Shown one piece after another: positions 1-34,024 of a DNA stretch of 64,000 nucleotides. Under the pieces are notes generated by a model. It was not told the origin of the DNA. It saw only the letters and a program-made list of their open reading frames with translations, and made no database searches. The stretch's first letter is position 1; the number at the start of each line of letters is the position of its first letter. A program made the translations under genes and the position numbers. The stretch is from Planctomycetota bacterium (GTDB lineage Bacteria > Planctomycetota > Planctomycetia > Pirellulales > Lacipirellulaceae): NCBI GenBank assembly GCA_039190745.1, contig JBCCXZ010000008.1, positions 1-64,000 on the forward strand, read 5' to 3'.

Positions 1-3000
1 ACCGACTTCCACCCGTTGCCCGTCATCGACAGCGCATCGCCGTCAACGACCATATCGACGCCCTTGTCCTGCGAACTGCCGCCGTGGCTCTCGATCGTCG
101 TGCTCTCAAAATCGAGCGAGCCGCCGCCGCCAGAGGAGTGCACGCCGGCCGAGAGCGTCACGCGCCCGCCTTCGTTGACGGCAACATCATCGCCCGCGTC
201 GACCGCCCACTCCACAACGTCGGTGACTTCGACCACAAGAGCTTCTTCGAACTCGTGCCCCGCCGAGTCGGTAACCTTCACCGACAGCGTGTGGCTGTCG
301 ACGTCCTCGTAGTTCAGGTCCGCGCCCGCCGCCACGGTCACGACGCCGGTCGAGGGATCAATCTCAAACCGTCCGTCCGCATCGTCGGTCAGCTCGTAAG
401 TGAACGCCTCCCCCGCGTCGGGGTCGCCGGCGGCCGCTGTGGCGACGACCGTTCCCGCGGCGGAGTTTTCCGCGACAGCGGCCGTGGTCTCAGACGCCGC
501 CGGGGTCACGACGATGCCGTCGATCCCCACGCCGTCGTTCTGGCCCGAGGGGCTGTTCCAAGTGAACGTAATCGTGTCGAAGGTCTCTCCTTCGGGGGCG
601 GTGATCGTTACCACGTCCGTGCCGCCTGAGTTGCCGGTCGGCAGCGGAATCTCCACGCCGCCTGCGGAAACGGTCACGTCCCCCCACTCCACGTCGCTAA
701 CCTGGAAGCTGATCTCGGTCAGCGGCTGGCTGAAGCCGAGCGAGGTTTCCCCGCCCGCGATCTTCCAGAATCGGTCGCCCTCGCCCGCGACGGCGCCGTA
801 GCCGTCGGCGTGCTCGATGATCGCGTTCTGCTGCCCGCCGACCTGAGTGACCGACGCGGTGACACCGTCCCCAAAGTCCAGCGACGTGAGAGGAGAGCCG
901 ACCGCGTCGCTCTCGAACCCGTAACTCATAGGCTCGGGTTCGCCAATCAGCGACCCGTCCGTCGTGATGAACTGCAGAGACTCGATCTCTTCATTAACGT
1001 CGGAAACGGCCACGTCGAACGACTCGACCCGCTCGTTCCCGACAATGTCGGTCACCTTCACCGACAGCGTGTGGCTGCCGGCGCCCTCGTGATTCAGGTC
1101 CGCCCCGTCCGCAACGGTCACCACGCCCGTGGCCGGGTCGATTTCGAACTGCCCATCGGCGTCGTCGGTAAGCTCAAAAGTAAAGGTCTCGCCCGAGTCC
1201 GGGTCGGTGGCAGACGCGGTCCCCACGACGGTCCCCGCCGGCGCGTTCTCCGCGACGGTCGTCCCGTCGAAGTCCAGGTCTGTCGGTGCGTCGTTGTCGT
1301 GATTGACGGTCAGCGTCGAGCCGTCATAGATGATCTCCGCGTCGCCCGGGATGGCCTCGTTGTGAACGGTCGCTCCGTCGGTGATTGTGATCGCCCCTGT
1401 GGCCACGCCGGCGGTGATGCTCGAACCGTTTTCGATGCCCACGGCGGCCGAGACCGAATCCAGATCGCCGGTGACCTTGATCGTGCCGCCTTTGACAATG
1501 CGGTCTCCGACGTCCACCGTGCCCACAGAGCCCGCCACGTCGAGGCTCGCCGCCGCCGTCATATTGTCGTTCACGGTGAGCGACGTGAGGCTCCCGGTGA
1601 CGGTCAAGTCGCCCGCGAAGTCGTCCCCGACGTCAATCGGGCCGACATCGCCCCGGATCTCAACGGTTCCTCCCAGGTCCGAGCCGCTGCCCTGCACAGT
1701 CATCGAACCGACGTCGCCGTCGATGAGCACCGTACCGGTCAAGTGCCCCGTGGTGAGGCTGCTCAGCGACGAGCCGACCGTGAGATCGCCGGCCATGCCC
1801 ACCGAGTTGAAGGACGTGGCCCCGCCCACGTTGATCGTGGACGCGGCGTTGATGCTGCCGCCGATGCTGATGTCGCCCGCGTCGCCCACAACCTGGAGCG
1901 TGCCGCCGGTCACCGTGGCGCCGATCGAGACCCCGCCCGCGTTGCCGCCGACCGAGACGGCGCCATGCATATTGTCTGTGAAAGTCATCGGCCCCGCGTC
2001 ACCGCCGACGTTCAGCGATGCCGTTCCGTTAAAGTTGTCGCCGACCGAGATCGACGCGAGGTTGCCGCCGACCGTGAGTGCGCCGGTCACGTCGTCGGGC
2101 ACCGACACGTCGCCGAGCGCACCGGTGACATTGACCGCCCCCGAGATGTCCGACCCGCTGCCGTTGAGCGTCAACGAAGCGACGTCCCCTGTAACGTCGA
2201 TCGTCCCGCTGATCGTGCCCGTGGAGACGGCGCCGACCGACGACCCAATCGTCACGGCGCCAGCAACGCTGCCCGAGCTGAACGAGGTTGCCCCGCCTAA
2301 GCTAATCACCGAACTGCCGTCGATTGTGCTGCCGATGCTCAGGTCGCCCGCCGCCCCGGTCACGTTCAGCGTGGCGCCGGACAGCGTCTCTCCGACCGAG
2401 ACGCCGCCCGCGTCGCCGCCGACGCTCACGTCGCCGCTGAGCTTGCCGTCGATCGCGATCGACCCGGCGTCGCCCCCGACCGTCAGCGACGCGGAGCCGT
2501 TGAGGTTGTCCCCCAAGGCGAACGAACCCAGGTTCCCGCCGACCGCGAGCGAACCGCTCATGTCGTCGGGCACGGTCACGTCCCCGAGGTTCCCGGAGAC
2601 GGCGACCAAGCCGCTGATGTCCGCTCCCGAGCCGGTGAGCGTCAGCGAAGCGATATCTCCAGTCACACTGAATGAGCCGCTAATCGTGCCCGTAGTGACG
2701 GCGCCAACCGAGGAACCGATGCTCACATCTCCGGCAACGGTTCCTGAGTTGAAGGCGGTCGCGCCTCCCAACTCAACGGTGGAGGAACTCCCGATCGGCC
2801 CCCCGATTTTCACATCCCCTGCGGCGCCAGTGATCGCAAGGCTGCCGTTCATGTTGCCGTCGATTGATATCTGCCCGGCGCCGCCGTCAACCTCCAACGA
2901 CCCGCTGGCGTTGAAGTTGCTGCCGAGAGAGAACGAGCCCAAGTCTCCGCCGACCGAGAGTGCGCCGATCATATCGTCGGGCACCGTCACGTCCCCGAGA

Positions 3001-5369
3001 TTCCCGGAGACGACCACCGAGCCGCTGATGTCGGCGCCCGAACCAGAGAGCGTCAGCGAGGCGATGTCTCCGGTCACACTGAATGTGCCACTGATCGTCC
3101 CCGTTGTGACGGCGCCGACCGAAGACCCGATCGTCACGTTGCCGATCACATTGCCCGAGCTCAAGGAGCTGGCGCCGCCGAGGTCCACAGAGGAATTCGC
3201 AGCGATCAGCCCTCCGATGTTCACGTCGCCGGCGCTTCCAGTAATCACCAGGTCGGCGTCGTTCCAGATAGCGTCGCCGATGTTCACCGCCTTAGCGTCG
3301 CCGTTCACAGTAAACGTCGAGTCGGAGGTGAGGTCGTCCACCACATTCAACAGACCGAGGTCGCCGTTGATCGTGACGTCGGTCTGGAACTCCTGCGCGT
3401 TGATCGTGCCGACGTTGGCGTTGATCACCGCCGGCCCGGCATTCACGTTCTTGCCAGCGTCGAAGGTAATCGTGCCAATCGTCCCGGAGCCCCCGCCGAC
3501 ATCCACGGTGCCCAGGTCCGCCTTCTCATCGACGGTCATCGTGTCGATGTCCACGTCGCTCGTGATGCCGCCAGTGTCGCCGCGCACATCGAGCGTGCCG
3601 ACGGTCACGTCGGTCGCCCCGAGCGAATCGATTGTGATCGGGTGGCCGCCACCGGAGGCCGTCACGTCGAGCGTGTTGGCGTCCGCGTCGTAGTCGAGTT
3701 CCAGCGTCCCGCCGCCGGGGTCGACCGACACCGCGACGTCGCCGTCCACCAGGATCGTCTCGCCGCTGATCGAGAGGTCGTTCAGATCGCCGTCGACCAC
3801 CAACGCGTCCGCGTCGGCAAACCGGATCGTCTCGACATTGGCGTAGTCCACCGTAAACGAGCCCGAACCCGTTTCGACGGTCAACCGCCCGTTTGAGAAG
3901 GTCACGTCCTCCGAATCGAAGGAACTCAAATCGATCGTGTCGTTGCCGGCCCCCCCGTCGAGGCTGAACGCGTCCCCCGCAACCGCCGCGGTGAGGTCGA
4001 AGACATCGTCGCCGCCGGTCCCTTCGAGCGCGGGGTCTTGGTAGAGCGACGCCCCGTCGATCTGATCGCCGAAGATCGCGACGTCTTGGATCTTGCCGGA
4101 GAAGAACTCCTTTAGTTTGTCCGCGCTGCCGTCGCTGCTGGACCAGGCGTTGGCGCCGATCACGATCGGCTCGGTGTTGCCGCTCCCGCCGGAACTGGCC
4201 CCCAGCCCCCCCGTGTAGCTGTCGGTGTCGGCGAGCTCGCCGTCGACGTAAAGGTTCAGGCCATCGCTCCCGAACGAGAGCGACACGTCGTGCCACGCAC
4301 CCGCCTGGACGCCAACGTCCGACCTCAGCGTGTAGCTCGCCGAGGTGCTCTGAACACGCACTTCGACCTCGCCGTTCTTCACCCACATCGTGACGTGGCC
4401 GCCGTCGTCGAAGTAGTCAGAATCCTTGGAGAACAGCCCCTGGGTCCCCGAGACCGTGTCGGCATTGAACCGCAGGTGGATCGTCCCCTCGTCCTGCAGC
4501 ATGTCGTCGGTGTGCTCCAGGACATAGTGGTCTGTGCCGTCGAATGTCGCCGAGCCTTCGCCGTCCCCGACGGGGTCTCCGCCGATCGTCCCGGCAGAAT
4601 CCCCGGCCATGTCCACGGCCTCGCCGTCCGTGAAGTGCCAACGATGGGTCGGGTCGTGATCGTCGATCACGTCCGGCTCCGGAGTCGAGGCCGTGCCGTC
4701 CGCGAACGTGACCTCGTCGACACCGGTGTAGTCGATCGTGAACGACTCGCCGCCGGTCTCGACGACGATCCGGTCGGAACCGACAATCACGTCGTCGGAG
4801 TTGTATCCACTGAGATCGATCGTGTTCTCGCCGTCGCCGCCGGCAACGGTGTAGGCAGCGCCGTCTTCGGCCTGGGTGAACGCGAAGGTGTCGTCGTGGC
4901 CCGAACCCACGACGCCCTCGATCGAATCGAGCGTGTCGGTCCCCAACGAGCCGAGGTCCTGCGCCTGCCCGTCGAGCGTGATGTCGACCGAGACGCCCGC
5001 GGTCGCGTCGGAGAGGTCGAGCGTGTCCTGGCCGGCGCCGCCGTCCAGCGTGTCGTCGCCCGTGCCGCCGCTGAGCAGGTCGTTGCCCTCCCCGCCGAAG
5101 AGCGAGTCGTTCCCGCCGCCGCCGAACAACTGGTCGTCGCCGCCGAGACCGTAGAGCGTGTCATCCGCCCCGTCGCCGGTCCCCACGTCGTTGCCCTCGG
5201 TCGCGTCGGCCTGGGCGTCGCCGGTGTCCGCGTCGACCCAAGTCGCCGAGAGAAGGATCCGCGGCTCGAGCACGTCGGACTTCAGCGTCGCACGCTGCTT
5301 CCTCCGCTTCTTGCCGCCGCCGGCTTCGTTGGGTTCGGCGCCCGGGTTGTCGTTGCTCTGATCGGCCAT
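1..5369 (-). CDS. Giant secreted adhesin (>1789 aa, C-terminus outside window): LEPRxLL leader, RTX-type Ca-binding repeats, LamG-like domain, Gly/Ser/Val-rich repeats, cadherin-like domains
   Basis: Absent from the ORF track because it has no stop in the window. Manual minus-strand translation from ATG 5369 (RBS-like GGAGAGGGG upstream) gives MADQSNDNPG...KKRRKQRATLKSDVLEPRILLSATW, then GGDDQLFGGGGNDSLFGGEGNDLLSGGTGDDTLDGGAGQD nonapeptides. A LamG-like stretch (WHDVSLSFGSDGLNLYVDGEL) and cadherin-like units (NDAPTDL...VAENAPAGTVVGTASATDPD...FEIDPATGVVTV...LNHE) follow. The frame stays open to the window edge. Confidence 0.9.
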   Translation of the reverse strand, partial: MADQSNDNPGAEPNEAGGGKKRRKQRATLKSDVLEPRILLSATWVDADTGDAQADATEGNDVGTGDGADDTLYGLGGDDQLFGGGGNDSLFGGEGNDLLSGGTGDDTLDGGAGQDTLDLSDATAGVSVDITLDGQAQDLGSLGTDTLDSIEGVVGSGHDDTFAFTQAEDGAAYTVAGGDGENTIDLSGYNSDDVIVGSDRIVVETGGESFTIDYTGVDEVTFADGTASTPEPDVIDDHDPTHRWHFTDGEAVDMAGDSAGTIGGDPVGDGEGSATFDGTDHYVLEHTDDMLQDEGTIHLRFNADTVSGTQGLFSKDSDYFDDGGHVTMWVKNGEVEVRVQSTSASYTLRSDVGVQAGAWHDVSLSFGSDGLNLYVDGELADTDSYTGGLGASSGGSGNTEPIVIGANAWSSSDGSADKLKEFFSGKIQDVAIFGDQIDGASLYQDPALEGTGGDDVFDLTAAVAGDAFSLDGGAGNDTIDLSSFDSEDVTFSNGRLTVETGSGSFTVDYANVETIRFADADALVVDGDLNDLSISGETILVDGDVAVSVDPGGGTLELDYDADANTLDVTASGGGHPITIDSLGATDVTVGTLDVRGDTGGITSDVDIDTMTVDEKADLGTVDVGGGSGTIGTITFDAGKNVNAGPAVINANVGTINAQEFQTDVTINGDLGLLNVVDDLTSDSTFTVNGDAKAVNIGDAIWNDADLVITGSAGDVNIGGLIAANSSVDLGGASSLSSGNVIGNVTIGSSVGAVTTGTISGTFSVTGDIASLTLSGSGADISGSVVVSGNLGDVTVPDDMIGALSVGGDLGSFSLGSNFNASGSLEVDGGAGQISIDGNMNGSLAITGAAGDVKIGGPIGSSSTVELGGATAFNSGTVAGDVSIGSSVGAVTTGTISGSFSVTGDIASLTLTGSGADISGLVAVSGNLGDVTVPDDMSGSLAVGGNLGSFALGDNLNGSASLTVGGDAGSIAIDGKLSGDVSVGGDAGGVSVGETLSGATLNVTGAAGDLSIGSTIDGSSVISLGGATSFSSGSVAGAVTIGSSVGAVSTGTISGTIDVTGDVASLTLNGSGSDISGAVNVTGALGDVSVPDDVTGALTVGGNLASISVGDNFNGTASLNVGGDAGPMTFTDNMHGAVSVGGNAGGVSIGATVTGGTLQVVGDAGDISIGGSINAASTINVGGATSFNSVGMAGDLTVGSSLSSLTTGHLTGTVLIDGDVGSMTVQGSGSDLGGTVEIRGDVGPIDVGDDFAGDLTVTGSLTSLTVNDNMTAAASLDVAGSVGTVDVGDRIVKGGTIKVTGDLDSVSAAVGIENGSSITAGVATGAITITDGATVHNEAIPGDAEIIYDGSTLTVNHDNDAPTDLDFDGTTVAENAPAGTVVGTASATDPDSGETFTFELTDDADGQFEIDPATGVVTVADGADLNHEGAGSHTLSVKVTDIVGNERVESFDVAVSDVNEEIESLQFITTDGSLIGEPEPMSYGFESDAVGSPLTSLDFGDGVTASVTQVGGQQNAIIEHADGYGAVAGEGDRFWKIAGGETSLGFSQPLTEISFQVSDVEWGDVTVSAGGVEIPLPTGNSGGTDVVTITAPEGETFDTITFTWNSPSGQNDGVGIDGIVVTPAASETTAAVAENSAAGTVVATAAAGDPDAGEAFTYELTDDADGRFEIDPSTGVVTVAAGADLNYEDVDSHTLSVKVTDSAGHEFEEALVVEVTDVVEWAVDAGDDVAVNEGGRVTLSAGVHSSGGGGSLDFESTTIESHGGSSQDKGVDMVVDGDALSMTGNGWKS

Positions 5370-5532
5370 GTCGTGCCCCTCTCCCTGAGCGCCACGCCCG
5401 TCGAGGCGGCCGTTCCGCCGCGCCGGGTGACGCAGTGTGCCCCCGGCTCGCCGGGGGCGGTTGGTGTCTCGATGAGTTGTGTCAGAAAAGCGCCGGGCTA
5501 CCCCCCCGGCCAGGGTCGTTGTCTGCCCGCGA

Positions 5533-6360
5533 CTAGTCCCTGCTGCCAGGTTCGCAGAGCTTCACTGCGAAACCCGCCGGCAAAGCCAGGTCGTGGTTGT
5601 CGATATCAAACACGCAGCGGAACGTCTCGGTCGCCGCGTCGATCGTAGTCTCGTGAGCGGTGAGAGTGGCCTCGACTCGCGGCGGCGCCGGGGCCTCGGC
5701 GGCCAGCGTGTAGGAGTCGCCCACCCGCAGCCGGCCGTAGTAGCGCACCGGCACGTAGAGCGTCACCCGCAGGCGGCGTGCGTCCACCAACCGCAGGATC
5801 GGGTCGTTCGGGCTGGCGGCCGAGCCGGGCTTGGCGGTGATCCGCGTCACGGTCCCGGCGAACGGCGCCCGCAGCAGGTGCCCCGCCAGGCGGACCTCTT
5901 CCAAGGCCACCTGCGCCAGGGCTTCTCGTTGTTGTTCGTGGGCCTGCGACAAACCGGCCCGCGCCTCGTGCAGCCGGCCTTCCGCCTCGTCCAACTCCAG
6001 ACCCGAGGCGGCGTCCTTCTCGAAGGCGTCACGCACCCGGCTGAGGTATTTTTCCGCCAGCGAAACCGTGCTCTGGGCTCGCTCCAAGAGCGCGGTCCGA
6101 TCGGCCACCGCCCGCGCCGCTTCGAGCGACGCCCGCGCCAACCGGTCGTCGAGCCGTGCTAGCACTTGCCCCTCTTTGACCTGCTCGACTTCCTGGACGA
6201 ACACCTCGTCGATCACGCCCGCGGCGGGCACGGCGAGGTCGACCGTTTGCTCGGCATCGACGACGCCGGGCAGCATGTCGACCGCCTCCGCCGGCGTCAT
6301 TCCAACGCACTCACGGGGCGTAATACTCAGCAGCAGCAGCAAAAACAGACTTCGGAACAC
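5533..6360 (-). CDS. HlyD/RND periplasmic adaptor (membrane fusion protein)
   Basis: Biotinyl-lipoyl halves (GVIDEVFVQEVEQVKEGQVLARLDD; LRAPFAGTV), helical hairpin, IDAATETF and LPAGF motifs. Start placed at GTG 6360 ahead of the hydrophobic FRSLFLLLLLS; start uncertain. Confidence 0.85.
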   Translation of the reverse strand: MFRSLFLLLLLSITPRECVGMTPAEAVDMLPGVVDAEQTVDLAVPAAGVIDEVFVQEVEQVKEGQVLARLDDRLARASLEAARAVADRTALLERAQSTVSLAEKYLSRVRDAFEKDAASGLELDEAEGRLHEARAGLSQAHEQQREALAQVALEEVRLAGHLLRAPFAGTVTRITAKPGSAASPNDPILRLVDARRLRVTLYVPVRYYGRLRVGDSYTLAAEAPAPPRVEATLTAHETTIDAATETFRCVFDIDNHDLALPAGFAVKLCEPGSRD

Positions 6361-6521
6361 GGCACGTTCTCGCGTATCCAGGGGCGAATCAAGGCAATCC
6401 GGGCGCAGAGACCCTTTCTGGAAACGTACGTCACGCAGTCCGGCGGTCCCGGACAAACACGGCGCCCGCTCCGCTTGCCGGAAAGCTGCACCCGACCTGA
6501 ACGGTTGGGCCGCCTGGGCCG

Positions 6522-8483
6522 GTGATAGCGGTGGCGCCCCTTCGAGCGGTCCTTCCGCAGATGCGCTCTCTGCGGAGCCGAAACTCTCTCTCGGGGCCCT
6601 ACAATCACGCCAAACGGGCGGTGTGCGCGCGGGGTCTGGTGACCAGAACGACACCTCACCAACGCCAGGCAACTTTGGAACCCGCGCAACGCAGAAGCGG
6701 CGTCGGAGAAGAGCCAAGGGTCGCACGACCCCGGATCGTGGGTTGGGCTGCGCACTGCACGTTCGGCGCTCTGCTGTTGTTCGGGGGCTGCAAAGTGGGC
6801 CCCGACTTCCGCCGCCCCAAGCCCCCCCCGATCGCGCCGGACTTCACCGAAGCCACCGCAGACGAAGCCGCCGCCTACGACGAACTCACCTACTGGTGGG
6901 CCGCGCTCGAAGACCCCGTGCTGAACGGCCTGATCGCCGAAGCCTGCCAGCAGAACCTCGACCTCCGAGAGGCCGCCCACCGCATCGCGGCGTCGCGGGC
7001 CCGGCTCGGGGTGGTCCGCGCCGACCGCCTCCCCCAGGCCGACGCCACCGCCGACTACAACTGGCGCGACTTCGCCGAGAACGCCACCCAGTTCATCAGC
7101 AGCACCGCCGGCAACCGGGGCTTCAGCTTCCACAGCCTCGGCTTCGATACCAGCTGGGAGATCGACCTCTTCGGCCGCATCGGCCGCTCGATCGAATCGG
7201 CCGCCGCCGACCTCGACGCCGACGTCGAGTCCTACCGCGACGTGAAGGTCACGCTGCTCTCTGAGGTCGCGACCACCTACGTCCGCCTGCGGCTGGCCCA
7301 GGAACGCCGGGCCATCGCCGAGCGCAACCTCGCCTCACAAGAAGAGACGCTCCGCATCGTCCGCGAGCGCAGAGAATCCGGGCTCGTTAGCCCGCTCGAC
7401 GTCGCCCAAGCCGAGTCGAACGTCTACCGCACCGCCGCGACGATCCCCGAGCTGCGGCAGCTGGAAACGATCGCGGTCAACCAGCTCGCGTTGCTCCTGG
7501 GGCGCTCGCCCGACCCGATGTTCCACCAGCGGCTGATCGACGGCCCGCTGCCGGTGCTGCCCGCTTCGCTGGCGGTCGGCGTTCCGGCCGACCTGCTCAC
7601 CCGCCGGCCCGACGTCCGCCGCGCCGAGCGGCAGGTCGCCAGCGCCTCGGCGCTCATCGGCGCCGCCGTGGCAGAGAAGTACCCGCAGATCTCGATCCTC
7701 GGCACTGTCGCCGTCGAGGCCAAAGACATCGACCTGCTCTTCACCAACGGCTCGCTCGCCCACCGCGTCGGACCTTCGCTCCGCTGGAACATCCTCAACT
7801 TCAATCAGCTCAACAACGCCATCGCCGGCCGCGGAGCCGAGTTCCGCATCGCCGTGGTAAACTACCAACGCACCGTGCTCACGGCCGTGCAGGAAGTGGA
7901 GGACGGCCTCGTCACGTTCCACCGCCAAGGCGAACGGGCCGCGGAACTCATGCGGGCGGTCGACGCCACGGGAAGCGCCGTCGAGCGCAGCGAGATCCGC
8001 TACGAACGCGGCCTGATCGGTTTCCAGCCGGTGCTCGACTCCCAGCGTGAGCTGCTCGCCGCCGAGGACGCCCTCGCCTCGAGCCGCGCCGAGACGCTGC
8101 TCGGCGTCATCCGTGTCTACAAAGCCCTCGGCGGCGGCTGGGACTCGAAGTGCGCCTGCGAGATCGCGTCGGCGGAAACAGCGCCCAGCGAAGAGATCCA
8201 ACCGGGTGAAGAGGGACCCGAGATGCCGGGCGAATCACTGCCCGACCCCGCTTCACTGCTCCCCGACACCGATGACGCCGGGCTAGCCAGCGCGGGACTC
8301 AACGGCCCGGGCAGTGCCCAAAAGGCGACGTTTGAATCGCCCCTCGTCCTGCCCCCGCCGGGCTTCGGGAACCAGGGAATTGCCCGCAGCACGCCGACGG
8401 CCCATCAGCCCGCGGCAGAACCCGCAGCGGCCCCGCCGCACATCGAGATGGCAACCCACCCTACAGGGCCGCGGTATCGCTAG
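6522..8483 (+). CDS. TolC/NodT-family outer membrane efflux lipoprotein
   Basis: Lipobox LLFGGC (Cys codon 6789-6791), then KVGPDF, WWAALEDPVLNGLI, SWEIDLFG, LLTRRPDVRRAE, VYKALGGGW. The true start is probably downstream of 6522. The stop overlaps the convergent gene at 8480-8483. Confidence 0.92.
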   Translation: MIAVAPLRAVLPQMRSLRSRNSLSGPYNHAKRAVCARGLVTRTTPHQRQATLEPAQRRSGVGEEPRVARPRIVGWAAHCTFGALLLFGGCKVGPDFRRPKPPPIAPDFTEATADEAAAYDELTYWWAALEDPVLNGLIAEACQQNLDLREAAHRIAASRARLGVVRADRLPQADATADYNWRDFAENATQFISSTAGNRGFSFHSLGFDTSWEIDLFGRIGRSIESAAADLDADVESYRDVKVTLLSEVATTYVRLRLAQERRAIAERNLASQEETLRIVRERRESGLVSPLDVAQAESNVYRTAATIPELRQLETIAVNQLALLLGRSPDPMFHQRLIDGPLPVLPASLAVGVPADLLTRRPDVRRAERQVASASALIGAAVAEKYPQISILGTVAVEAKDIDLLFTNGSLAHRVGPSLRWNILNFNQLNNAIAGRGAEFRIAVVNYQRTVLTAVQEVEDGLVTFHRQGERAAELMRAVDATGSAVERSEIRYERGLIGFQPVLDSQRELLAAEDALASSRAETLLGVIRVYKALGGGWDSKCACEIASAETAPSEEIQPGEEGPEMPGESLPDPASLLPDTDDAGLASAGLNGPGSAQKATFESPLVLPPPGFGNQGIARSTPTAHQPAAEPAAAPPHIEMATHPTGPRYR

Positions 8484-10609
8484 GTCTGCGTCTGCAGGTC
8501 GTGCAGCAACTGCAGACCGCGGCGGCACAAGTAACGCAGCAGCGTGGTCCGCTCGCCGTCGAACGCCACCTGGGCCGTGCTCCCCGTGCGGAGCCAGCCG
8601 TGGTCGCCCTCGCCGATGGCGATCGTCACCTCAAACAGCGAATTGGTGGCCTCGCCCGTCGAGGGGTCAACCGCGATCTCGCCGCCTGCCAAGTGCGTCA
8701 GCTCTTCCTGATCGACCTTCTTCCGCCCCTGGGCAGCGACGGTCAGCACCCGCCCTTCGACCACCTCGCCGGGCAAACCGATCATCCGCAGCAACACCGG
8801 AGCGTCGACCGCCAGCCGCGCGTCGACCATCTGCTCGCTCGTCAGCAGGGTGCGAACCGTCCACGGCCCGGCGCCCACGACCGCGATCGGGTCGCCCTTG
8901 CCGACGAACATGCCTACGCGGGTCTGGTCGATCCCGGTCACCTCGCCCCGACGCGGCGCCCGGACGCTAAGCTGCTGCAGCCGCTCCTCGGCGATCTTCT
9001 GATCCTCTACGACTTCGGCCCGGCGAGCCTCGGTCCGAGCGGCCGTAGTACGGTCCTCAAAAATGGCCCGCTTCCACTCCACGCCCAACGCCGCCGACTG
9101 CGCTGCCAACCGCTCGGCCTCCGCCTCGATGTCGATGTTCTCCAGCCGGCACAGCATGTCGTCCGCAGAAACCGCATCGCCGCTGTCGACCAGCACCTCG
9201 CGGACAAAGCCGGGCGCCCCGGCCCGGACGGTCAGTTCCTCTTGCCGCGTGACAACCCCCACGGCCTCCACGCCCGCGGGCATCGGCAACAGACAGACCG
9301 CCAGGAGCAAAGCCGCCGCGCACAGCGCCGTCACGCCCGTTGCCCGGCGCCGGCGGTCGGCCAGGTCGTCGGAGAACCTCAAGTAGTTTGTCAGCGAGAG
9401 GCCGCTCTGCTTCACCGTCTGCAGGAAGTACAGCGCCGCCACGCCGAAGCCAACCAGCGGGAGCTTCTGCGCAATCACCAGGCTGATGCCCAAGAGCAGC
9501 GTCACTTTGTACAAGGCGCCCGCCACGCCGAAAGCCGCCATCCCGGCCCCGTGCAACCGCCCGCGGCCCGATTCGGCCCGCTTCACGCCATAAAGCAGCC
9601 AGCTGGCCCAGCTCCGCAGGCAGCGGTCCGCCTCGGCACGCAGGTTGGGGATGCCCAGCGCGTCTGACAGGACGTAGTAGCCGTCGTACCGCATCAGCGG
9701 GTTGGCGTTGAAGGCGATCGTCACAACCGTCGACAGAACCACCGCGTAGTGGGCCGCGTCGTGCAGCGTGCCCGGCGGCGTCGCCACCCACACCGCCAAC
9801 GCGAACATCGCGGCGATCGATTCGAAGTACATGCCCGCCAGCGCCACAACCACCCGCTGCCACCGGCTGGGGAAGCCCCATGACGCCGACGCATCGACGT
9901 ACGCGCACGGCGTGAGCATGATGAGGTAGGCACCCATCTCCGGCACCTGCCCGCCGAACCGCTTGCACGCGTACGCGTGCCCGAGTTCGTGCACCACCTT
10001 CAGCACAACCAGCAGCGTCCAGAGCACCGGGATGTTGCCGACCGCCAGGATCGACGCCATCGGGCTGGTCACCTCGTCCCAACGCGAGAACACTACCGCG
10101 AGCGAGGCCAGCAGCGCCGCGCACCATAGGGCGAACGCCGCCCGCGTGAACAGCGGCCGCACCAAATGAACCGTGCAGTTGAGAAACCGATCCGGCTTCA
10201 CCAGCGGGACCCGCAGGAAAAGCGAACTCATCAACCGGTTCTTACGCTTGGCCTGCCGCTTCTCTTCAAACCGCTTGAACAGCCGCCCGCCGTCCGACAG
10301 CGGCAGGTTCAGCAGCCCCCGCTGCGTGAGCGAGAGGATGAACGCGTAGAACTCTTCCTCTTGGTCGTCTTCGATCACCCCGCGGGCGGTAAGCTCGGCC
10401 AACAGGCTCCCGAGCTTCTGCCGGTCGTGGATCGCTACGAACACCTGATAGTCGTGCTCGCTGAAGCGGTGCGACTGGAACGACACCGGGTCGATCACCA
10501 CGTACGCCGGCTCGCCGCCGAACACGTGCCGGCTCACTTCCAGCTCGGGGCGCACCCCGACCCGCACGTCGGCGAGTTGGGCGGCAAGGTTGGGCGTCTG
10601 CTGCGACAT
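8480..10609 (-). CDS. Fusion: PqqD/RRE-like N-terminus + M50 (site-2) metallopeptidase membrane domain + HlyD-like C-terminus
   Basis: HELGH zinc motif, NPLMRYDGYY (M50 NxxPxxxxDG-type), several TM helices, C-terminal VRAGAPGFVREVLVDSGDAV and VRAPRRGEV lipoyl-like motifs. Confidence 0.88.
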   Translation of the reverse strand: MSQQTPNLAAQLADVRVGVRPELEVSRHVFGGEPAYVVIDPVSFQSHRFSEHDYQVFVAIHDRQKLGSLLAELTARGVIEDDQEEEFYAFILSLTQRGLLNLPLSDGGRLFKRFEEKRQAKRKNRLMSSLFLRVPLVKPDRFLNCTVHLVRPLFTRAAFALWCAALLASLAVVFSRWDEVTSPMASILAVGNIPVLWTLLVVLKVVHELGHAYACKRFGGQVPEMGAYLIMLTPCAYVDASASWGFPSRWQRVVVALAGMYFESIAAMFALAVWVATPPGTLHDAAHYAVVLSTVVTIAFNANPLMRYDGYYVLSDALGIPNLRAEADRCLRSWASWLLYGVKRAESGRGRLHGAGMAAFGVAGALYKVTLLLGISLVIAQKLPLVGFGVAALYFLQTVKQSGLSLTNYLRFSDDLADRRRRATGVTALCAAALLLAVCLLPMPAGVEAVGVVTRQEELTVRAGAPGFVREVLVDSGDAVSADDMLCRLENIDIEAEAERLAAQSAALGVEWKRAIFEDRTTAARTEARRAEVVEDQKIAEERLQQLSVRAPRRGEVTGIDQTRVGMFVGKGDPIAVVGAGPWTVRTLLTSEQMVDARLAVDAPVLLRMIGLPGEVVEGRVLTVAAQGRKKVDQEELTHLAGGEIAVDPSTGEATNSLFEVTIAIGEGDHGWLRTGSTAQVAFDGERTTLLRYLCRRGLQLLHDLQTQT

Positions 10610-10627
10610 ATCGCGTTGGGCTTGCGG

Positions 10628-12535
10628 CTAGAGCTTCCACAGGTTCAGGCGGGCCGAATCGATCACCCGGTGCGCCCACACCCACCACACCGGCCGACGC
10701 CCCGCGTCGACCCGCGCCACGCCCCGCATGCCCGCACGCAACCACTCGGGCGGAGCCTCGGCAAACTCCGCCTCGGCCGTGAACACGTTCTTGCCGCCCT
10801 CGACCTGCGACGCCGCCTGCACCTGCGTAATCCGTAGCTGGTTGGCGACCTCCGGCCGGGCGGAAATCGCCGCCGTCGCGACCTGCCCCGCCGCCAGTTC
10901 CGCGGCCGAGTGCTCCGGCACATGCACGTTGATCTTCCACTGCCCCTGCGGCGCGAAGCGCAACAGAGGCTCTCCGAGCGTCACCACCTCGCCCAGCCTC
11001 GGCTCGAGCCGGCCTTCGAGGATCACGCCCGCAGCCGGAGCGCGGATCTCCGCCGCGGCGATCTTCTGTTCTGTGATCTTCAGCTGTGCCTCTGCGATAC
11101 CCGCCTCCGAGTGGGCCTGCGCCGCCTGGGCCACGTCCCCCGCCATCGACGCCTGCCTCGTGATCACCCGAGCGCGCCGCAATTCCGAACGCAGCTTCTC
11201 CCGCTCCGCCTGGAGCGTCTGCGTGTCCATCCTGGCCAGCAACTGACCCTCGGTCACCCGGTCGCCGGGCTGAACCAGCGACGCGGCGATGGCGCCTTCG
11301 AACGGCGCTGAGAGCTGCAGGTCGCCGGTGGTTTCCACCAGACACGGGGCCGCGAGCCGGTACTCGATCTTGCCGAAAGCCACCCAAGCCGCGGCCAGCA
11401 GAAGCGCGGCAGCCATCGCCTTGCGCTTGGTGCTGCCGGGCTCGACGAACCCTTGCAGGAACCGCCCCGCCGCGTCGCCGGCGCGCCGCACCGCAGAGCG
11501 GTTCGCCCGCTCCAACAGCAGCAGGCCCGTCATCATCGGGGCGACCAGCTCTTGCACCTTCGCGAGTTGGTCCCGCTTGAACGGGCTACCGCCCGGGTTG
11601 CGGAGGCTCACCACCGCCACGCAGTTGTCTTGCACAAAGAGCGGGATCGAGGCCACCGGCGACGCCCCCAGCGAGGCGTACCACTGCTTGTGCAGGTGGT
11701 GGCCCGTGGTGACCCGCGCGCCGTTCTTTTCGTTTTCACTCTGGAAGCACACCACCTCGCCGGCGTCAAGGCACTCGCACATCGACTGCTGGATCAGCTG
11801 CGAGCCGGGGCTCCGCGGGTAGAGGTCGTCAAACCCCGAGACGCAAGCCAGTCGCACGCTCTTGCCCCGCACGAGGCCGAGAGCCACTTGATCGCAGTTG
11901 AGGTTCGTCTTAAGGCTGTTGGTGAGCGCGAAGCAGAACTCTTCCAAGCTCTGGTGCGCGGCGACCTTCGCCAGCACCGACGCCTGCGGCGAGGGCCGCG
12001 AACGCCTCCGGCACGCTTCGGCCTGCAGGTCGATCATCCCAACAATGGCGTGCAACTCAGACAACCGCGCCGAGGCCATGTCGCGACGCTCGCACGGCAG
12101 CACCACCGCCACCGAGCCGATACCGCCGTCGACCTTGTTCTCCAACGGGACGGCCAGGATCGCGAACGTCCGGTCGACCCCCGCGGATCGGAAGAACCGC
12201 GCTTGGCTCGTTTGGTGGTACCGCGAGCTGAGCAGCATCCCTTCGCAGTGACGGGCCCAGCTCTGCTTGGCCGAGTCGTTCGCAGAGACCGACTCCTCCG
12301 CCGAGCCGTTGTCGACGTCCAACCGCATCGCAACGTAGGGGCTCTCGAAACACTCGGCGAGGTACGCCAGCCCCGCGTTGTACGCCGACCGCAGGCTGGT
12401 GCACTCTTCGAGCCTCTTCACCAGCCCCGCGGGAGCAGGCGGAGACGGCTTGCCCGGCGCGGGCTGCTTTTCCGGAGGCTTCTGGGCGACCCCGCCCAAC
12501 GCTGGCTCTGGCGCCGCTGGTGTGGTTTGGCTCAT
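10628..12535 (-). CDS. GAF-like domain(s) + HlyD family adaptor
   Basis: GAF-like segment (VASIPLFVQDNCVAVVSLRN...PF), a single TM helix, then LSAPFEGAIAASLVQPGDRVTEGQLLARMD, IRAPAAGVI and LRAGMRGVARV. Confidence 0.85.
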   Translation of the reverse strand: MSQTTPAAPEPALGGVAQKPPEKQPAPGKPSPPAPAGLVKRLEECTSLRSAYNAGLAYLAECFESPYVAMRLDVDNGSAEESVSANDSAKQSWARHCEGMLLSSRYHQTSQARFFRSAGVDRTFAILAVPLENKVDGGIGSVAVVLPCERRDMASARLSELHAIVGMIDLQAEACRRRSRPSPQASVLAKVAAHQSLEEFCFALTNSLKTNLNCDQVALGLVRGKSVRLACVSGFDDLYPRSPGSQLIQQSMCECLDAGEVVCFQSENEKNGARVTTGHHLHKQWYASLGASPVASIPLFVQDNCVAVVSLRNPGGSPFKRDQLAKVQELVAPMMTGLLLLERANRSAVRRAGDAAGRFLQGFVEPGSTKRKAMAAALLLAAAWVAFGKIEYRLAAPCLVETTGDLQLSAPFEGAIAASLVQPGDRVTEGQLLARMDTQTLQAEREKLRSELRRARVITRQASMAGDVAQAAQAHSEAGIAEAQLKITEQKIAAAEIRAPAAGVILEGRLEPRLGEVVTLGEPLLRFAPQGQWKINVHVPEHSAAELAAGQVATAAISARPEVANQLRITQVQAASQVEGGKNVFTAEAEFAEAPPEWLRAGMRGVARVDAGRRPVWWVWAHRVIDSARLNLWKL

Positions 12536-12559
12536 CGCGTGCTGTCCCGGCGGCGGTGT

Positions 12560-12964
12560 TTACGAACGGACCAAGGCCGACTGCAAGTCGACCGAGGCCA
12601 TGAACTTGATGCCAACCTCGAACACGCCCTCGCTCACCAACCGGCAACGCATGCACCGGCCGAACAACGCCCCCAGACGCAGGTGCTCGTCGGAGAACTC
12701 CAGCCAGTAGAGGTCGCCCGGCACGGCCGGCGACGGCGAGATCAGCATGCAGCCCCCGTCAGACACGTCGGCCGTGACGGTCTCTAATGCGTAATTGTTT
12801 CGCGCGCTCGCGTTAGCAGGCCGAAGCACCACGCCGGTCTGGATGTCGAGCCGCTCACTGGAGCGTGCGGCGATCACCGCCGCCTCGCTGTTGCCGGAGA
12901 GTTCCTTCAGCGCTTCGATGGCGTCCATCGAACCCAGCAGATCGTCGACTTCGCCTGTAAACAC
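12560..12964 (-). CDS. PilZ domain protein (c-di-GMP receptor)
   Basis: RSSER (RxxxR) and DVSDGG (DxSxGG) motifs; C-terminal VGIKF. Confidence 0.8.
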   Translation of the reverse strand: MFTGEVDDLLGSMDAIEALKELSGNSEAAVIAARSSERLDIQTGVVLRPANASARNNYALETVTADVSDGGCMLISPSPAVPGDLYWLEFSDEHLRLGALFGRCMRCRLVSEGVFEVGIKFMASVDLQSALVRS

Positions 12965-13136: not shown

Positions 13137-14006
13137 ATGCATTCTTCCCACCGCAGGCCCGTGGCGCTAGAATCGGATGTTTGGCCCCGGCTGTCGGCGG
13201 CCGCCACCCCGCACCAACGCCGCCAGGAGGTCGTCGTGTCCGCCCCCCGCAGCCCCCTCAGCCAGCAGCACCCCCGCCGCACCGCACCAGCCGCAACACT
13301 CCTGCTCGCCGCGCTCTTGGGCTGCGGCCAGTCTCAACCGGCAGAAGAGTTCCCCTCACCCGGGGCGGCCGTCGTGGGAGTCGAGCAGCTCGCTGGCAAA
13401 ATCCGCGCCCAGTTTGAGGCCGGCACGCCAGAGAAAGCCCACGACGCGATGCACGATATCGGCAGGCTCCTGCTGAAAATCGCGAAGCCAGGCTTCCTCG
13501 CTCAGCTCGACGCGGGCGTCCGCGACGAGATGGAACAGGCCGCGAAAGACCTGCTTGCGATCTACACAAAGATCGACGGCGCCATGTTCCACGGCGGCGG
13601 CAACGCTGAGGCGCCCGAGTACAACGACGTAGCCGCCGACATTGACGCCGCGCTCGCCACGCTCCTGAAGCTCGTCCCCGAGTCCGAAAGGAAGGCCGCC
13701 GCAGCGGAACTCGCCTCCGACGACGACCATGGCCACGATCACGGAGAGCACGACCACAGCGACCACGACGATGACCACGACCATGGCGAAGGCGATCACG
13801 CGGACCACGAGGGGCACGATCACGACGAAGCAGCACATTCAGAGGAAGCCCACGACCACGACGGCGACCACGGCCACGATCATGGCGAAGAGGGAGTGAA
13901 AGAGCAGACGGCCGACGAGCCCGCTGCGGAACCTAAACTCGACGTCACCCCCGAAGCCGCCGAGCCTGCCGCTGCGCCGCCCGTCGACGCAACGCCGGAG
14001 CAGTAA
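13137..14006 (+). CDS. His/Asp-rich putative lipoprotein
   Basis: LLLAALLGC lipobox, a helical domain, then a DHGHDHGEHDH... tract. The true start is probably downstream of 13137. Confidence 0.7.
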   Translation: MHSSHRRPVALESDVWPRLSAAATPHQRRQEVVVSAPRSPLSQQHPRRTAPAATLLLAALLGCGQSQPAEEFPSPGAAVVGVEQLAGKIRAQFEAGTPEKAHDAMHDIGRLLLKIAKPGFLAQLDAGVRDEMEQAAKDLLAIYTKIDGAMFHGGGNAEAPEYNDVAADIDAALATLLKLVPESERKAAAAELASDDDHGHDHGEHDHSDHDDDHDHGEGDHADHEGHDHDEAAHSEEAHDHDGDHGHDHGEEGVKEQTADEPAAEPKLDVTPEAAEPAAAPPVDATPEQ

Positions 14007-21430: not shown

Positions 21431-21664
21431 CGCAACCTGGGGGGGTAGGTTCGCGGGAGGTGGCGTACCGCTACGGTTGCAGAGATTAGCGGCTTGTGGC
21501 GTGCAGCCAAAGACCAACTGCCCGGTGCCATTGCCACGCTTGCGAGGCAATGCAGAATACCAATCCGCTGCCCGAATAGCGACAGCCGACCCAAGCCCGG
21601 CGCCATGGCCAAGCTCGCGTGAAGGTACCCGGGAACTGAGCTTGCACGCGACGCCCTAGGAATG

Positions 21665-31821: not shown

Positions 31822-32565
31822 ATGAATCCGTACAGCTCGCTTTCGGACGACTTCTACCTCAACCTCAATCTCAGCACCGAGATGGAGCTCCCCAGCGCCC
31901 GCGAAACGGTGCTGCACTACTTCGAGCAGATCCAGAAGAAGTTCCCCCAGATGCGGAACTTCTACTCCCGAGACAAGAACGACTTCGTCCTCGAAGAAGA
32001 CAAAGACCGCGGCAACTACCGCTGGGCCACCGTCGAGCCCCGCCGCATCTGCTCCGGGCAAGTGAACCCCGAGTCGCTCGAAGACGCCCTCGTGCAGCAC
32101 CGCCACGTGCTCGACACGGCGCCCTACGCCCTCTCGATCAGCCCGCTCGACTGCGAGGCCCTCGACCTCATGCTGGGCTTCGACTTCACCTACCGCGGCA
32201 ACCACAACCAGCTCATCGCCGAGGCCCTCGGCATCTGCCCCGCGATGGAACGGCTCAGCCACATCCCCGGCAGCACCATCATCAACAACGAGCCGAACCT
32301 CACGTTCGCCCTCGACGAAGAGTGCCGCCTGCAGTGCCGCCTGAGCGTCGAGCCCCGCACCAACGCCTACCAGATCCGCACCGGCGAGTACCAGGAAGAC
32401 CAGATCAGCGTCTACGTCACCGCCCGCCAATACGGCAGCCTCGGCGCCGACGACACCTTCCTCAAGGCCCTCGACCGCCTCACCGACGTCTGCCGCGAAG
32501 TAGTAGACGACTACGTGGTCGACGCCATTCTCCAACCGCTGGCGCGAACGATTTCGCTGGAGTAG
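31822..32565 (+). CDS. Conserved hypothetical protein
   Basis: Clean ORF with host-like GC3 codon bias, RBS-like AAGGGA and a good promoter upstream. No motif recognised. Confidence 0.8.
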   Translation: MNPYSSLSDDFYLNLNLSTEMELPSARETVLHYFEQIQKKFPQMRNFYSRDKNDFVLEEDKDRGNYRWATVEPRRICSGQVNPESLEDALVQHRHVLDTAPYALSISPLDCEALDLMLGFDFTYRGNHNQLIAEALGICPAMERLSHIPGSTIINNEPNLTFALDEECRLQCRLSVEPRTNAYQIRTGEYQEDQISVYVTARQYGSLGADDTFLKALDRLTDVCREVVDDYVVDAILQPLARTISLE

Positions 32566-32629
32566 CTCGCACCCCTTCCGGGGTCAGTATTTCTCTCTGC
32601 TGCGCGACCCGTACGTCTGTCGTTCGAGA

Positions 32630-32857: not shown

Positions 32858-32915
32858 TTCGGCTACAACGATAATCATCGCCGAACATTACTCACCCGGT
32901 TCGAAAGCGCTTCCC

Positions 32916-33960: not shown

Positions 33961-34024
33961 CCCGGGTACACTCAATGAAATCATTGTGCGTTCTCATACC
34001 ATTCGTCTTCCGCGGAGATCCGAC

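Follow-up and report, generated by a model that had tools for sequence, protein, structure and literature searches.

A PilZ-linked, SecA-less M50–HlyD locus as the probable export and processing route of a giant LEPR-XLL adhesin in a marine planctomycete

A locus at the start of a 64,000-nucleotide stretch of marine planctomycete DNA (the window) lies beside the gene of a giant adhesin without a signal peptide and is probably the export and processing route of that protein. It encodes an envelope-spanning set consisting of a TolC channel, three adaptors and a putative c-di-GMP sensor, one of the adaptors being fused to an RRE domain and a membrane protease. With moderate confidence, we interpret the locus as one branch, marked by PilZ and lacking SecA, of a widespread machine that would export and mature LEPR-XLL proteins. 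The cassette as a gene set is already known (Kamneva, Poudel and Ward, PLoS One 2015; PMC4452313). Within this gene set the window falls into a separate clade, here called clade A (43 of 81 rows), in which the locus is PilZ-linked and SecA-less; this clade is new here.

The LEPR-XLL tag, which marks the N-terminus of some of the largest bacterial proteins, is an orphan without an assigned export route. If the RRE–M50–HlyD fusion reads the tag, RiPP-type leader recognition would have been recruited for protein secretion and the meaning of LEPR-XLL would be directly testable. The PilZ clade would then be a TolC-coupled exporter lacking an ABC or SecA-like motor, challenging ideas on how type-I-like systems are powered, and would offer a handle on c-di-GMP-controlled surface placement of giant adhesins in marine planctomycetes.

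Layout of the locus

The features of the locus are listed in Table 1. All six genes named in a first-pass annotation of the window were recovered as ORFs with Pfam and NCBIfam assignments. Two details of that annotation were corrected: the TolC gene lies on the strand opposite to its neighbours, and the giant begins with MADQ, the KKRRKQR stretch occupying residues 20–26. The TolC gene converges on the M50–HlyD gene, the ends of the two ORFs overlapping on opposite strands, and diverges from the plain adaptor gene. The true start of the plain adaptor is probably later than that of the longest ORF, because homology begins near residue 144; this adaptor is conserved across related loci. The PilZ gene is the first of the run PilZ, GAF–HlyD, M50–HlyD. 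The pair expected of type I secretion, an MFP of the HlyD type and a channel of the TolC family, is present.

Table 1. Features of the locus (window coordinates; aa, residues of the encoded protein).
Feature	Position	Strand	Evidence or remarks
Giant cargo	3..5369	-	At least 1789 aa, runs past contig start; RTX, LamG and cadherin domains
N-terminal leader of giant, aa 1-44	5238..5369	-	Basic KKRRKQR, then LEPRILLSATW; LEPR-XLL domain
RTX nonapeptide repeats of giant, aa 74-125	4995..5150	-	HemolysinCabind 3.9e-11; immediately past leader
Plain HlyD/RND-type periplasmic adaptor	5533..6726	-	RND_mfp 3.3e-40, HlyD_3 8.6e-19; longest ORF
TolC/NodT-family outer-membrane channel	6522..8483	+	outer_NodT 1e-99, OEP 7.4e-49; longest ORF, match from aa 84
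RRE–M50–HlyD fusion, 709 aa	8480..10609	-	Pfam, NCBIfam
RRE/PqqD-fold domain, fusion aa 9-105, predicted cytoplasmic	10295..10585	-	AF2, VIA-align, Foldseek
Polytopic M50 intramembrane metalloprotease domain, fusion aa 150-445	9275..10162	-	Peptidase_M50 6.2e-10
HELGH of M50 domain	9977-9991	-	aa 207-211
NPLMRYDG of M50 domain	9680-9703	-	aa 303-310
Periplasmic HlyD/MFP domain of fusion, aa 446-709	8483..9274	-	PDB profile search, Pfam, NCBIfam
GAF–HlyD adaptor	10628..12535	-	Cytoplasmic GAF aa 197-331, one TM aa 373-391, periplasmic MFP domain
PilZ protein	12560..12964	-	PilZ 1.5e-9, 38.5 bits against a cut-off of 22.5; RSSER and DVSDGG

The gene arrangement is far from chance. Examination of 80 related loci showed it again, and the order giant, HlyD, PilZ, GAF–HlyD, M50–HlyD returns across related loci. 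Greedy gene calling took antisense ORFs in some of these loci, and the annotation of their flanks is consequently incomplete. Among the sequencing runs listed as matching the stretch there was no RNA run; one marine metagenome, which may be where this DNA came from, contains the stretch.

Domains of the fusion and of the PilZ protein

The N-terminal approximately 100 residues of the fusion were modelled with AF2 from a 48-sequence alignment (pLDDT 88.6). The model consists of three strands (residues 16–22, 25–32 and 37–41) followed by three helices (residues 43–51, 58–68 and 73–88), a winged helix–turn–helix of the RRE/PqqD fold. Comparison with 48,161 chains using VIA-align gave 12 chains with Z of at least 8, mostly RRE-bearing RiPP enzymes. 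The best was the lasso B1 protein 6jx3_B (Z 10.5, rmsd 2.7, 84 of 85 residues aligned), and the others included TbiB1 (5v1u_A, Z 10.2), TigE (9.9) and PqqD (8.5). In a Foldseek search of the PDB the best rows were RRE proteins, headed by TbiB1 (TM 0.74 on the target), none of the rows reaching E ≤0.001. The RRE/PqqD layout that had been read earlier from the first ~90 residues alone is supported. The domain is missed by the PqqD sequence models (PqqD_rel_X, TIGR04353, E 0.066, 14.2 bits for a cut-off of 35), and Pfam gave nothing credible in the N-terminal 110–130 residues, with no PqqD row up to E 10; this lack of recognition by sequence and the weak Foldseek E values count against the main reading. 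The domain may bind the LEPR leader.

M50 (site-2) proteases are recognised by HExxH and by a second zinc-ligand motif, NPxxxxDG. Both lie intact in a polytopic domain of the fusion, as the first-pass annotation had described, and the domain scores 39.2 bits with Peptidase_M50 against a cut-off of 27.2. His207, Glu208, His211, Asn303, Pro304, Asp309 and Gly310 are invariant in 26 homologues. Hydropathy gave at least six hydrophobic segments in the fusion and one in GAF–HlyD; in the fusion the first TM segment is preceded by a basic linker, and the last is followed by the HlyD part. The M50 part is nearest to RiPP leader peptidases, namely daptide_HExxH (NF041824; 1.2e-46, score 159.6 against a cut-off of 300) and YydH/LiaK (NF058609; 5.3e-8, 32.8 against 225), both matches lying below the family cut-offs. 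In a PDB profile search the MFP part alone was matched (MacA 1.4e-11, also MexA, EmrA and HlyD-type MFPs), and the M50 part was without any match. To our knowledge, no M50 protease is an established protein conduit, which counts against the main reading; the domain here may cleave the leader or form such a conduit.

PilZ receptors of c-di-GMP carry RxxxR and D/NxSxxG motifs. Both occur in the PilZ protein of the locus, whose domain scores above the family cut-off, and the motif residues are kept in 30–34 of 35 clade-A PilZ proteins. The protein is a candidate c-di-GMP receptor.

The giant, its relatives and the clades of the machine

The domains of the giant include Cadherin (3.5e-23), Laminin_G_3 (7.8e-14) and RTX (3.9e-11). 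The LEPR-XLL model NF012209 matches residues 32–43, near the N-terminus of this large repetitive protein, scoring 19.4 bits where 17 are required and 19.9 bits when the genome was searched. The 1789 residues include no cysteine and no hydrophobic 19-mer; the giant is without a hydrophobic signal peptide. Three RTX regex matches lie within 250 residues of the leader motif, and RTX repeats come after the leader in eight of 11 clade-A giants.

Glu35, Arg37 and Ser41 are invariant across 15 leaders, and neighbouring giants share the N-terminal leader [LIV]ExR[IV][LM]LSA, which was found in eight of the nine neighbouring large ORFs listed. A strict LEPRxLL regex proved too narrow, giving seven of 80 loci with two chance matches among them, and a looser leader motif was therefore used; with it, ORFs of 400 residues or more that carry the motif within the first 200 were found in 13 of the 80 loci. 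Counted by leader or by C-terminal motif, cargo-type giants occur in 19 or more of the 42 clade-A loci. No giant neighbours the cassette in some clade-A loci (L030, L019 and L025), which counts against the main reading. Across 151 genomes of the phylum, NF012209 matched in 15 and M50–HlyD was found in 40, all of the 15 lying within those 40; M50–HlyD is thus present in 15 of 15 genomes with a LEPR-XLL match and in 25 of the 136 others. The search for LEPR-XLL was insensitive (the genome of the window itself was missed at E ≤0.001) and kinship inflates the figure of 15 of 15. The co-occurrence of leader and fusion that had been suggested for checking is borne out by these genomes and by the gene neighbourhoods.

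The C-terminal motif is of the LWGLLRG type and occurs in 15 giants of clade-A loci whose C-terminus can be seen; L034 and L026 have variants of it, and the giant of the closest syntenic relative carries it as well. The C-terminus of the window giant lies off the contig, and the motif is known from relatives alone. Compared with the NCBIfam models, the C-terminal 70 residues of five giants gave a single row, a chance lanthipeptide match (E 0.039). The motif could be the real export signal or the RRE ligand, and this counts against the main reading.

In an IQ-TREE phylogeny both clade splits had SH-aLRT 100. A PilZ gene is linked in 34 rows of clade A and a SecA-like gene in none of the 43, whereas in the SecA clade a truncated SecA-like ATPase directly follows M50–HlyD in 30 loci, and 29 of 32 rows have a SecA-like neighbour. 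Genomes with the clade-A system alone (G002, whose record calls it complete, G005, G127 and G124) have SecA of canonical length only, in four of four cases. The genome of the window has three M50–HlyD systems, on contigs C8, C1 and C16, those on C1 and C16 being outside clade A. The C8 and C1 systems each adjoin a LEPR-type giant; the C16 system has no LEPR-type neighbour, a point against the main reading. The search of the rest of this genome for a partner SecA-like ATPase, proposed at first pass, yielded one unlinked paralogue on contig C23 (653 residues with DEAD, PPXD and P-loop domains), 48% identical over 502 residues to the SecA-like gene past M50–HlyD in locus L063. A DUF3467 gene is present in the genome too, on contig C71 and not linked to the cassette.

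The window between 15.7 and 64 kb contains no ABC, RND or SecA gene in the 32 of 40 ORFs scanned, the sole transporter being of the MATE type. In clade A, four of the 42 loci have ABC-like ORFs, and their place varies. The closest syntenic relative has, ~7 kb past its giant, a MacAB-type operon encoding HlyD, a MacB permease, an ABC ATPase and OEP; this operon is self-contained, and four unrelated genes separate it from the giant. The early observation that the cluster lacks an ABC ATPase accordingly stands, there being no conserved ABC gene in the 42 clade-A loci and none in the window ORFs scanned. Its wider form, the lack of any ATPase, holds for the clade-A loci and fails for the family: it is a property of the clade, because the sister clade is SecA-linked, and the genome of the window has the unlinked C23 copy. 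No inner-membrane channel or motor was identified, which also counts against the main reading.

Proposed export route and alternatives

From the gene set and the domain assignments we infer a route with leader binding, cleavage, an inner-membrane path and an energy source. The giant would be synthesised without a Sec signal peptide, and in the cytoplasm the RRE of the fusion would bind its basic stretch and LEPRILLSATW, the expected binding mode being an added β-strand as in RiPP enzymes. The RRE would pass the leader to the adjoining M50 metalloprotease, which would remove it during or after threading. The plain, GAF-fused and M50-fused adaptors together with the TolC/NodT channel would form a duct across the periplasm and outer membrane. 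The unfolded, cysteine-free chain would leave through this duct and its leader-proximal RTX repeats would fold with calcium outside, export being gated by PilZ (through c-di-GMP) and the cytoplasmic GAF domain. In this clade, which is without a dedicated ATPase, canonical SecA, the proton-motive force and a calcium-folding ratchet are candidate energy sources. Precedents exist in RiPP pathways, where the M50 protease EpeP is thought both to cleave and to export its peptide and an RRE is required for lasso-peptide proteolysis (PMC10885120).

A bolder version of this route, which we judge unlikely as a whole, is a two-membrane exporter lacking any dedicated ATPase. A ring of RRE–M50–HlyD with the GAF–HlyD and plain adaptors would recognise the leader in the cytoplasm, form the inner-membrane passage, cut the leader and feed giants of more than 1,800 residues N-terminus first into TolC. 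RTX calcium folding and/or the proton-motive force would drive it, PilZ would provide a c-di-GMP gate and the LWGLLRG-type motif would serve as a final anchor or stop.

Classical type I systems use a dedicated ABC transporter and an uncleaved C-terminal signal on the substrate; HlyB–HlyD–TolC and LapBCE with LapD/LapG are examples for RTX proteins and giant adhesins. The present locus resembles them in its MFP and TolC duct, its cysteine-free RTX/cadherin giant and a likely c-di-GMP link, and differs in having no ABC protein, three different adaptors and an N-terminal leader with RTX repeats beside it. In the Lap system a protease, the periplasmic cysteine protease LapG, acts on the N-terminus of the cargo, whereas here an intramembrane M50 protease is fused to an adaptor and PilZ replaces LapD. 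In PCATs with HlyD/TolC, a C39 cysteine protease on the ABC pump acts on leader-bearing bacteriocins; recognition and cutting of an N-terminal leader by a protease domain of the exporter would be common to both, whereas the locus has an RRE and an M50 metalloprotease on an adaptor and no pump. RiPP peptidases (lasso B1/B2, EpeP/YydH, daptide M50; PMC10885120 and NCBIfam models) likewise place an RRE fold beside a protease, and the M50 HExxH part of the fusion comes closest to the daptide and YydH/LiaK models, but the presumed substrate here exceeds 1789 residues and the protease is MFP-fused and TolC-coupled.

The first-pass statement that similar planctomycete clusters had been noted was right; they appear in the study of Kamneva et al. 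(PMC4452313), in which GAF–HlyD, M50–HlyD, HlyD and OEP are described around a secondary SecA and the M50 protein is proposed as a possible membrane pore, the machine being presented without experiments. In both cases Peptidase_M50/HlyD, GAF/HlyD and HlyD are encoded together, sometimes with OEP, and ABC is absent. Their module is defined by a secondary SecA_DEAD protein, whereas the clade of the window has no neighbouring SecA and has PilZ instead. The paper names META1p2399-2402 of Methylobacterium extorquens AM1, a system of the SecA clade. Its passages on the module mention neither a cargo nor an RRE domain nor a LEPR leader; PilZ and PqqD have zero occurrences in its text, and 'substrate' occurs once, in a general description of type I secretion. 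In literature searches, a link of SecA_DEAD with HlyD was found in this paper only, nothing specific was found on the M50/HlyD/GAF/PilZ combination, and LEPR-XLL was mentioned once each in two papers, neither with secretion as the subject of its title. A search combining LEPR, Planctomycetes and secretion had no relevant paper among the matches listed, and RiPP recognition elements with M50 were covered only by the review PMC10885120.

In one alternative reading, the truncated SecA-like ATPase on C23 would drive the system in trans, as in the SecA-linked sister clade, and the locus would simply be a dispersed version of the module described in 2015. The similarity of the C23 paralogue to the L063 gene fits this, as does the statement of Kamneva et al. 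that partner genes are also found unlinked, at other sites in genomes (PMC4452313). We nevertheless consider it distinctly improbable: a SecA neighbour is absent from all 43 clade-A rows and present in 29 of the 32 rows of the SecA clade, with full branch support for both splits, the four clade-A-only genomes have canonical-length SecA alone, and the C23 gene could belong to the non-A systems on C1 and C16. Smaller still is the chance of classical type I secretion of the giant, with a dedicated ABC transporter encoded past the contig end or elsewhere in the genome and with M50, GAF and PilZ as accessories. The MFP, TolC, RTX repeats and cysteine-free cargo are type I hallmarks, the contig stops within the giant gene, and the closest relative has the operon with an ABC ATPase described above. 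That operon, however, is MacB-type with its own adaptor and channel, and set apart from the giant by four unrelated genes; ABC-like ORFs are rare and variably placed in clade A, none was seen among the ORFs scanned in the other 50 kb of the window, and the family-wide partner is SecA-like or none, never ABC (loci examined here; PMC4452313).

The conserved C-terminal motif of cargo in relatives opens a Lap-like retention-and-release reading, unconsidered at first pass. The motif would be the export signal and the chain would leave C-terminus first; the RRE-held leader would anchor the adhesin until an M50 cut released it under c-di-GMP control, M50 being a functional analogue of LapG and PilZ/GAF of LapD. 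Its likelihood is low, about that of SecA acting in trans. The spread of the motif over the clade-A giants and the closest relative, the clade-A-specific PilZ with its conserved c-di-GMP motifs and the RTX/cadherin adhesin type of the cargo speak for it. The RTX repeats, however, lie beside the N-terminal leader and not near the C-terminus, there is no ABC transporter to power C-terminus-first export, the C-terminus of the window giant is beyond the contig, and the motif, hypothetical as a signal, drew no NCBIfam match in the five C-terminal stretches. Least probable, by a little, is that the role of RRE–M50–HlyD is to mature or export a small peptide of the RiPP kind, or to carry out regulated intramembrane proteolysis, its position next to giants being incidental. 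The nearness of the M50 part to the daptide and YydH/LiaK peptidases would fit such a role, and RREs are otherwise known from RiPP pathways, but both matches fall under the family cut-offs and the cassette has no conserved modifying enzyme or short precursor gene. The main reading, in which the fusion serves the LEPR-XLL giants, agrees better with the linkage of giants to the cassette and with the finding of M50–HlyD in all 15 genomes with a LEPR-XLL match.

The cassette, its giant and the LEPR-XLL leader

The source genome comprises 3.9 Mb and is 95% complete; the window spans nucleotides 1–64,000 of its contig C8, and the stretch is present in a marine metagenome. All six genes named in the first-pass annotation were found, and the M50 motifs of the M50–HlyD fusion are intact as it had stated (HELGH, residues 207–211; NPLMRYDG, residues 303–310). 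Their key residues are invariant across 26 homologues, and the PilZ motif residues are conserved in 30–34 of 35 sequences. Hydrophobic segments number at least six in M50–HlyD and one in GAF–HlyD. The TolC gene lies on the strand opposite to the other five, convergent with M50–HlyD and divergent from the plain adaptor.

The gene set is of a known kind, in print with a putative function. The same neighbourhood was described around 'secondary SecA_DEAD' proteins, with a proposed ATPase role for the SecA paralogue and a possible pore role for the M50 protein; unlinked partners also occur (Kamneva, Poudel & Ward, 2015; PMC4452313). The first-pass annotation was thus right that similar M50/HlyD/GAF clusters had been noted in planctomycetes. 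In a term search of that text, PilZ and PqqD are absent and 'substrate' appears once, within a general description of type I secretion. The PilZ-linked clade without SecA, the RiPP-recognition-element (RRE) fold, the link to LEPR-XLL cargo and the C-terminal motif go beyond the literature found.

The giant starts with MADQ and contains a basic stretch and LEPRILLSATW within residues 20–44, a region scoring 19.4 bits (cutoff 17) on the NCBIfam LEPR-XLL model NF012209. Neither cysteine nor a hydrophobic stretch able to act as a Sec signal was found in its at least 1789 residues. Of nine large ORFs inspected next to the cassettes, eight carry the pattern [LIV]ExR[IV][LM]xSA after a basic or polar stretch, and 15 aligned leaders all share E35, R37 and S41. 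Among 80 related loci, 13 have the motif within the first 200 residues of an ORF of at least 400 residues, many other giants being cut N-terminally by contig ends. RTX nonapeptides lie no more than 250 residues after the leader in 8/11 giants of clade A (the PilZ-linked clade holding the window) versus 0/3 of clade B (the SecA clade).

Co-occurrence of leader and M50–HlyD, proposed earlier as a check, was seen among 151 genomes spread evenly over the phylum (NF012209 at E ≤ 0.001, 15 genomes; M50–HlyD at E ≤ 1e-30, 40 genomes): M50–HlyD was present in 15/15 genomes with an NF012209 match versus 25/136 without, a contrast that overstates independence because the sampled genomes are related. The leader search was insensitive and missed the window's own genome, where the leader reaches only E = 0.004. 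Some genomes combine many LEPR proteins with one machine (nine proteins in genome G055, 14 in G106). The window's genome has three at or above the NF012209 cutoff (contigs C8, C29 and C1) and a further, marginal one on C11; none of the four contains cysteine.

Where the C-terminus is visible, clade-A giants carry a short conserved LWGLLRG...G-type motif, 20–40 residues before a charged tail. The pattern was matched in 15 giants, with variant forms in loci L034 and L026, and is also present in the closest syntenic relative; one ORF of L023, non-adjacent to the cassette, does not have it. The motif is known from relatives, the window giant being cut by the contig end before that point. Five C-terminal 70-residue stretches of giants matched no NCBIfam model. 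It may serve as an anchor or as a type-I-like export signal, or could even be the ligand of the RRE.

Features of the window and of related sequences (L, locus; C, contig; G003, related genome)
Feature	Position	Strand	Remarks
Giant ORF	window 3..5369	−	≥1789 aa, C-terminus off contig; RTX repeats, LamG-like domain, cadherin domains
Plain RND/HlyD-type adaptor	window 5533..6726	−	
NodT/TolC-family channel	window 6522..8483	+	match 1e-99
M50–HlyD fusion	window 8480..10609	−	709 aa
GAF–HlyD adaptor	window 10628..12535	−	
PilZ protein	window 12560..12964	−	
289-aa protein	window 13137–14006	+	
M14 carboxypeptidase-like gene	window 14013–15689	+	
DUF7453 protein	window 19796–21550	−	
Second low-GC patch	window 32000–36000		GC 0.59–0.60
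Two ORFs in second patch	window 33259–33960, 33986–34906		no Pfam matches
C1 system	L085 6125–17937		OEP, HlyD, HlyD, M50–HlyD, divergent from 1624-aa giant with LEDRILYSATP leader
C16 system	L086 7100–12516		GAF–HlyD, HlyD, M50–HlyD
Short SecA, C23	L084 1255–3216		653 aa
DUF3467 gene	C71:3928–4188		
LEPR-type protein	C29, near 5347		
MacAB-type operon	G003:C138 (L120 5747–11248)		HlyD, MacB permease, ABC ATPase, OEP
C-terminal motif stretches	L002:2935–3144, L016:7333–7542, L008:7080–7289, L031:6288–6497, L120:18294–18503, and others		

The N-terminal domain of M50–HlyD

Residues 9–128 of M50–HlyD were aligned with 47 homologous N-termini from related loci and modelled with AlphaFold2 (mean pLDDT 88.6), giving three strands followed by three helices and a long linker helix. 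A structural search of 48,161 PDB chains returned 12 with Z ≥ 8, the majority RRE carriers: lasso-peptide B1 (6jx3_B; Z = 10.5, rmsd 2.7, 84 of 85 residues aligned), TbiB1 (5v1u_A; 10.2), TigE (8vpo_A; 9.9) and PqqD (5sxy; 8.5). ThcOx, TbtB and PbtF also exceeded 8, and NisB, MccB and LynD scored lower. Foldseek ranked TbiB1 first (TM 0.74 on the target, E = 8.9e-3), with no match at E ≤ 0.001, and sequence models barely detect the domain (PqqD_rel_X, E = 0.066). By its predicted fold the domain is an RRE, in agreement with the RRE/PqqD layout read in the first-pass annotation. A search of 1.84 billion representative proteins with the domain profile matched 2,835 clusters; of the top 150, about 120 have lengths of 640–770 residues, so among the best matches this type of RRE sits mostly on proteins of M50–HlyD length.

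Two clades and the ATPase

More than 900 M50–HlyD homologues of about 710 residues were found; scanning a single genome for each species gave 585 relatives, and 80 loci were kept. The order giant, HlyD, PilZ, GAF–HlyD, M50–HlyD recurs among them. Pfam searches on the flanks of nine loci placed a truncated SecA (DEAD, PPXD and P-loop domains; 660–725 residues) directly after M50–HlyD in a spirochaete, a verrucomicrobium and a phycisphaera. Such a gene is present in 30/80 loci and was not found in 37 whose downstream sequence extends 2.5 kb or more; 13 others are too short to tell. In a FastTree tree of 81 M50–HlyD proteins, clade A (43 rows) has 34 PilZ-linked, no SecA-linked and nine rows with neither, the SecA clade (32 rows) none, 29 and three, and two small groups containing the C1 and C16 copies of the window's genome six rows with neither, part of the 'neither' rows being loci shortened by contig ends. 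Both splits received SH-aLRT 100 in an IQ-TREE run restricted to 39 of these 81 rows.

The window's genome encodes three M50–HlyD systems (C8, C1 and C16), that on C8 belonging to clade A. The search for a SecA-like ATPase elsewhere in the genome, suggested earlier, did yield one short SecA, 48% identical over 502 residues to a clade-B-linked short SecA but unlinked to these systems; the single DUF3467 gene is likewise unlinked to all three. Across the genomes examined, short SecA tracks non-A systems. In G001, two systems are SecA-linked, each accompanied by a SecA-like gene of its own, and one belongs to clade A; in G028 the short SecA comes after the second M50–HlyD; short SecA and non-A systems occur together in G003 and G098. 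In G004 a non-A copy is present and short SecA was not found. All four clade-A-only genomes (G002, complete per its record; G005; G127, 92% complete; G124, 96% complete) have SecA of canonical length only. The claim that the machine has no ATPase therefore stands for clade A, as regards a dedicated one, but does not extend to the family as a whole.

Export of the giant by a dedicated ABC transporter, with M50, GAF and PilZ as accessories to classical type I secretion, is considered improbable. No ABC, RND or SecA gene was found in the 32 ORFs scanned of 40 called at 15.7–64 kb of the window, and ABC-like ORFs (Walker A and signature regular expression, position not fixed) occur in 4/42 clade-A loci. 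What keeps this explanation alive is G003, with the same gene order: beyond its giant lie a PLD-like enzyme, a phosphoesterase, a kinase-like protein and an H+-pyrophosphatase, and, about 7 kb away, a complete MacAB-type operon. That operon, however, is self-contained, having its own adaptor and channel, and is read as an independent pump.

Proposed mechanism and neighbouring genes

The locus most likely encodes a machine for export and maturation guided by the leader. The LEPR leader would be captured by the cytoplasmic RRE and then removed by the adjoining M50 protease; the unfolded, cysteine-free chain would be carried out by the three adaptors and TolC, its leader-proximal RTX repeats folding outside, and PilZ and the GAF domain may provide gating. 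A review (PMC10885120) offers two precedents: the M50 protease EpeP, proposed both to cut its peptide and to export it, and lasso-peptide proteolysis that depends on an RRE. The first-pass interpretation is partly supported, in the predicted RRE fold, the link to LEPR-type cargo and the lack of a dedicated ATPase in clade A; binding and removal of the leader, the route across the inner membrane and the energy source are inferred.

Next to the cassette, the 289-aa protein is very rich in His and Asp in its C-terminal half, matches nothing in Pfam and may bind metal; the M14 carboxypeptidase-like gene lies directly downstream. The DUF7453 protein is encoded in a low-GC patch (0.57 versus about 0.67 elsewhere), and its C-terminus is PEP-CTERM-like, with PEP followed by a hydrophobic segment and basic residues. 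In the second low-GC patch, which may be acquired DNA, the two ORFs adjoin a 1004-aa protein whose Big_5 match is below the cutoff.
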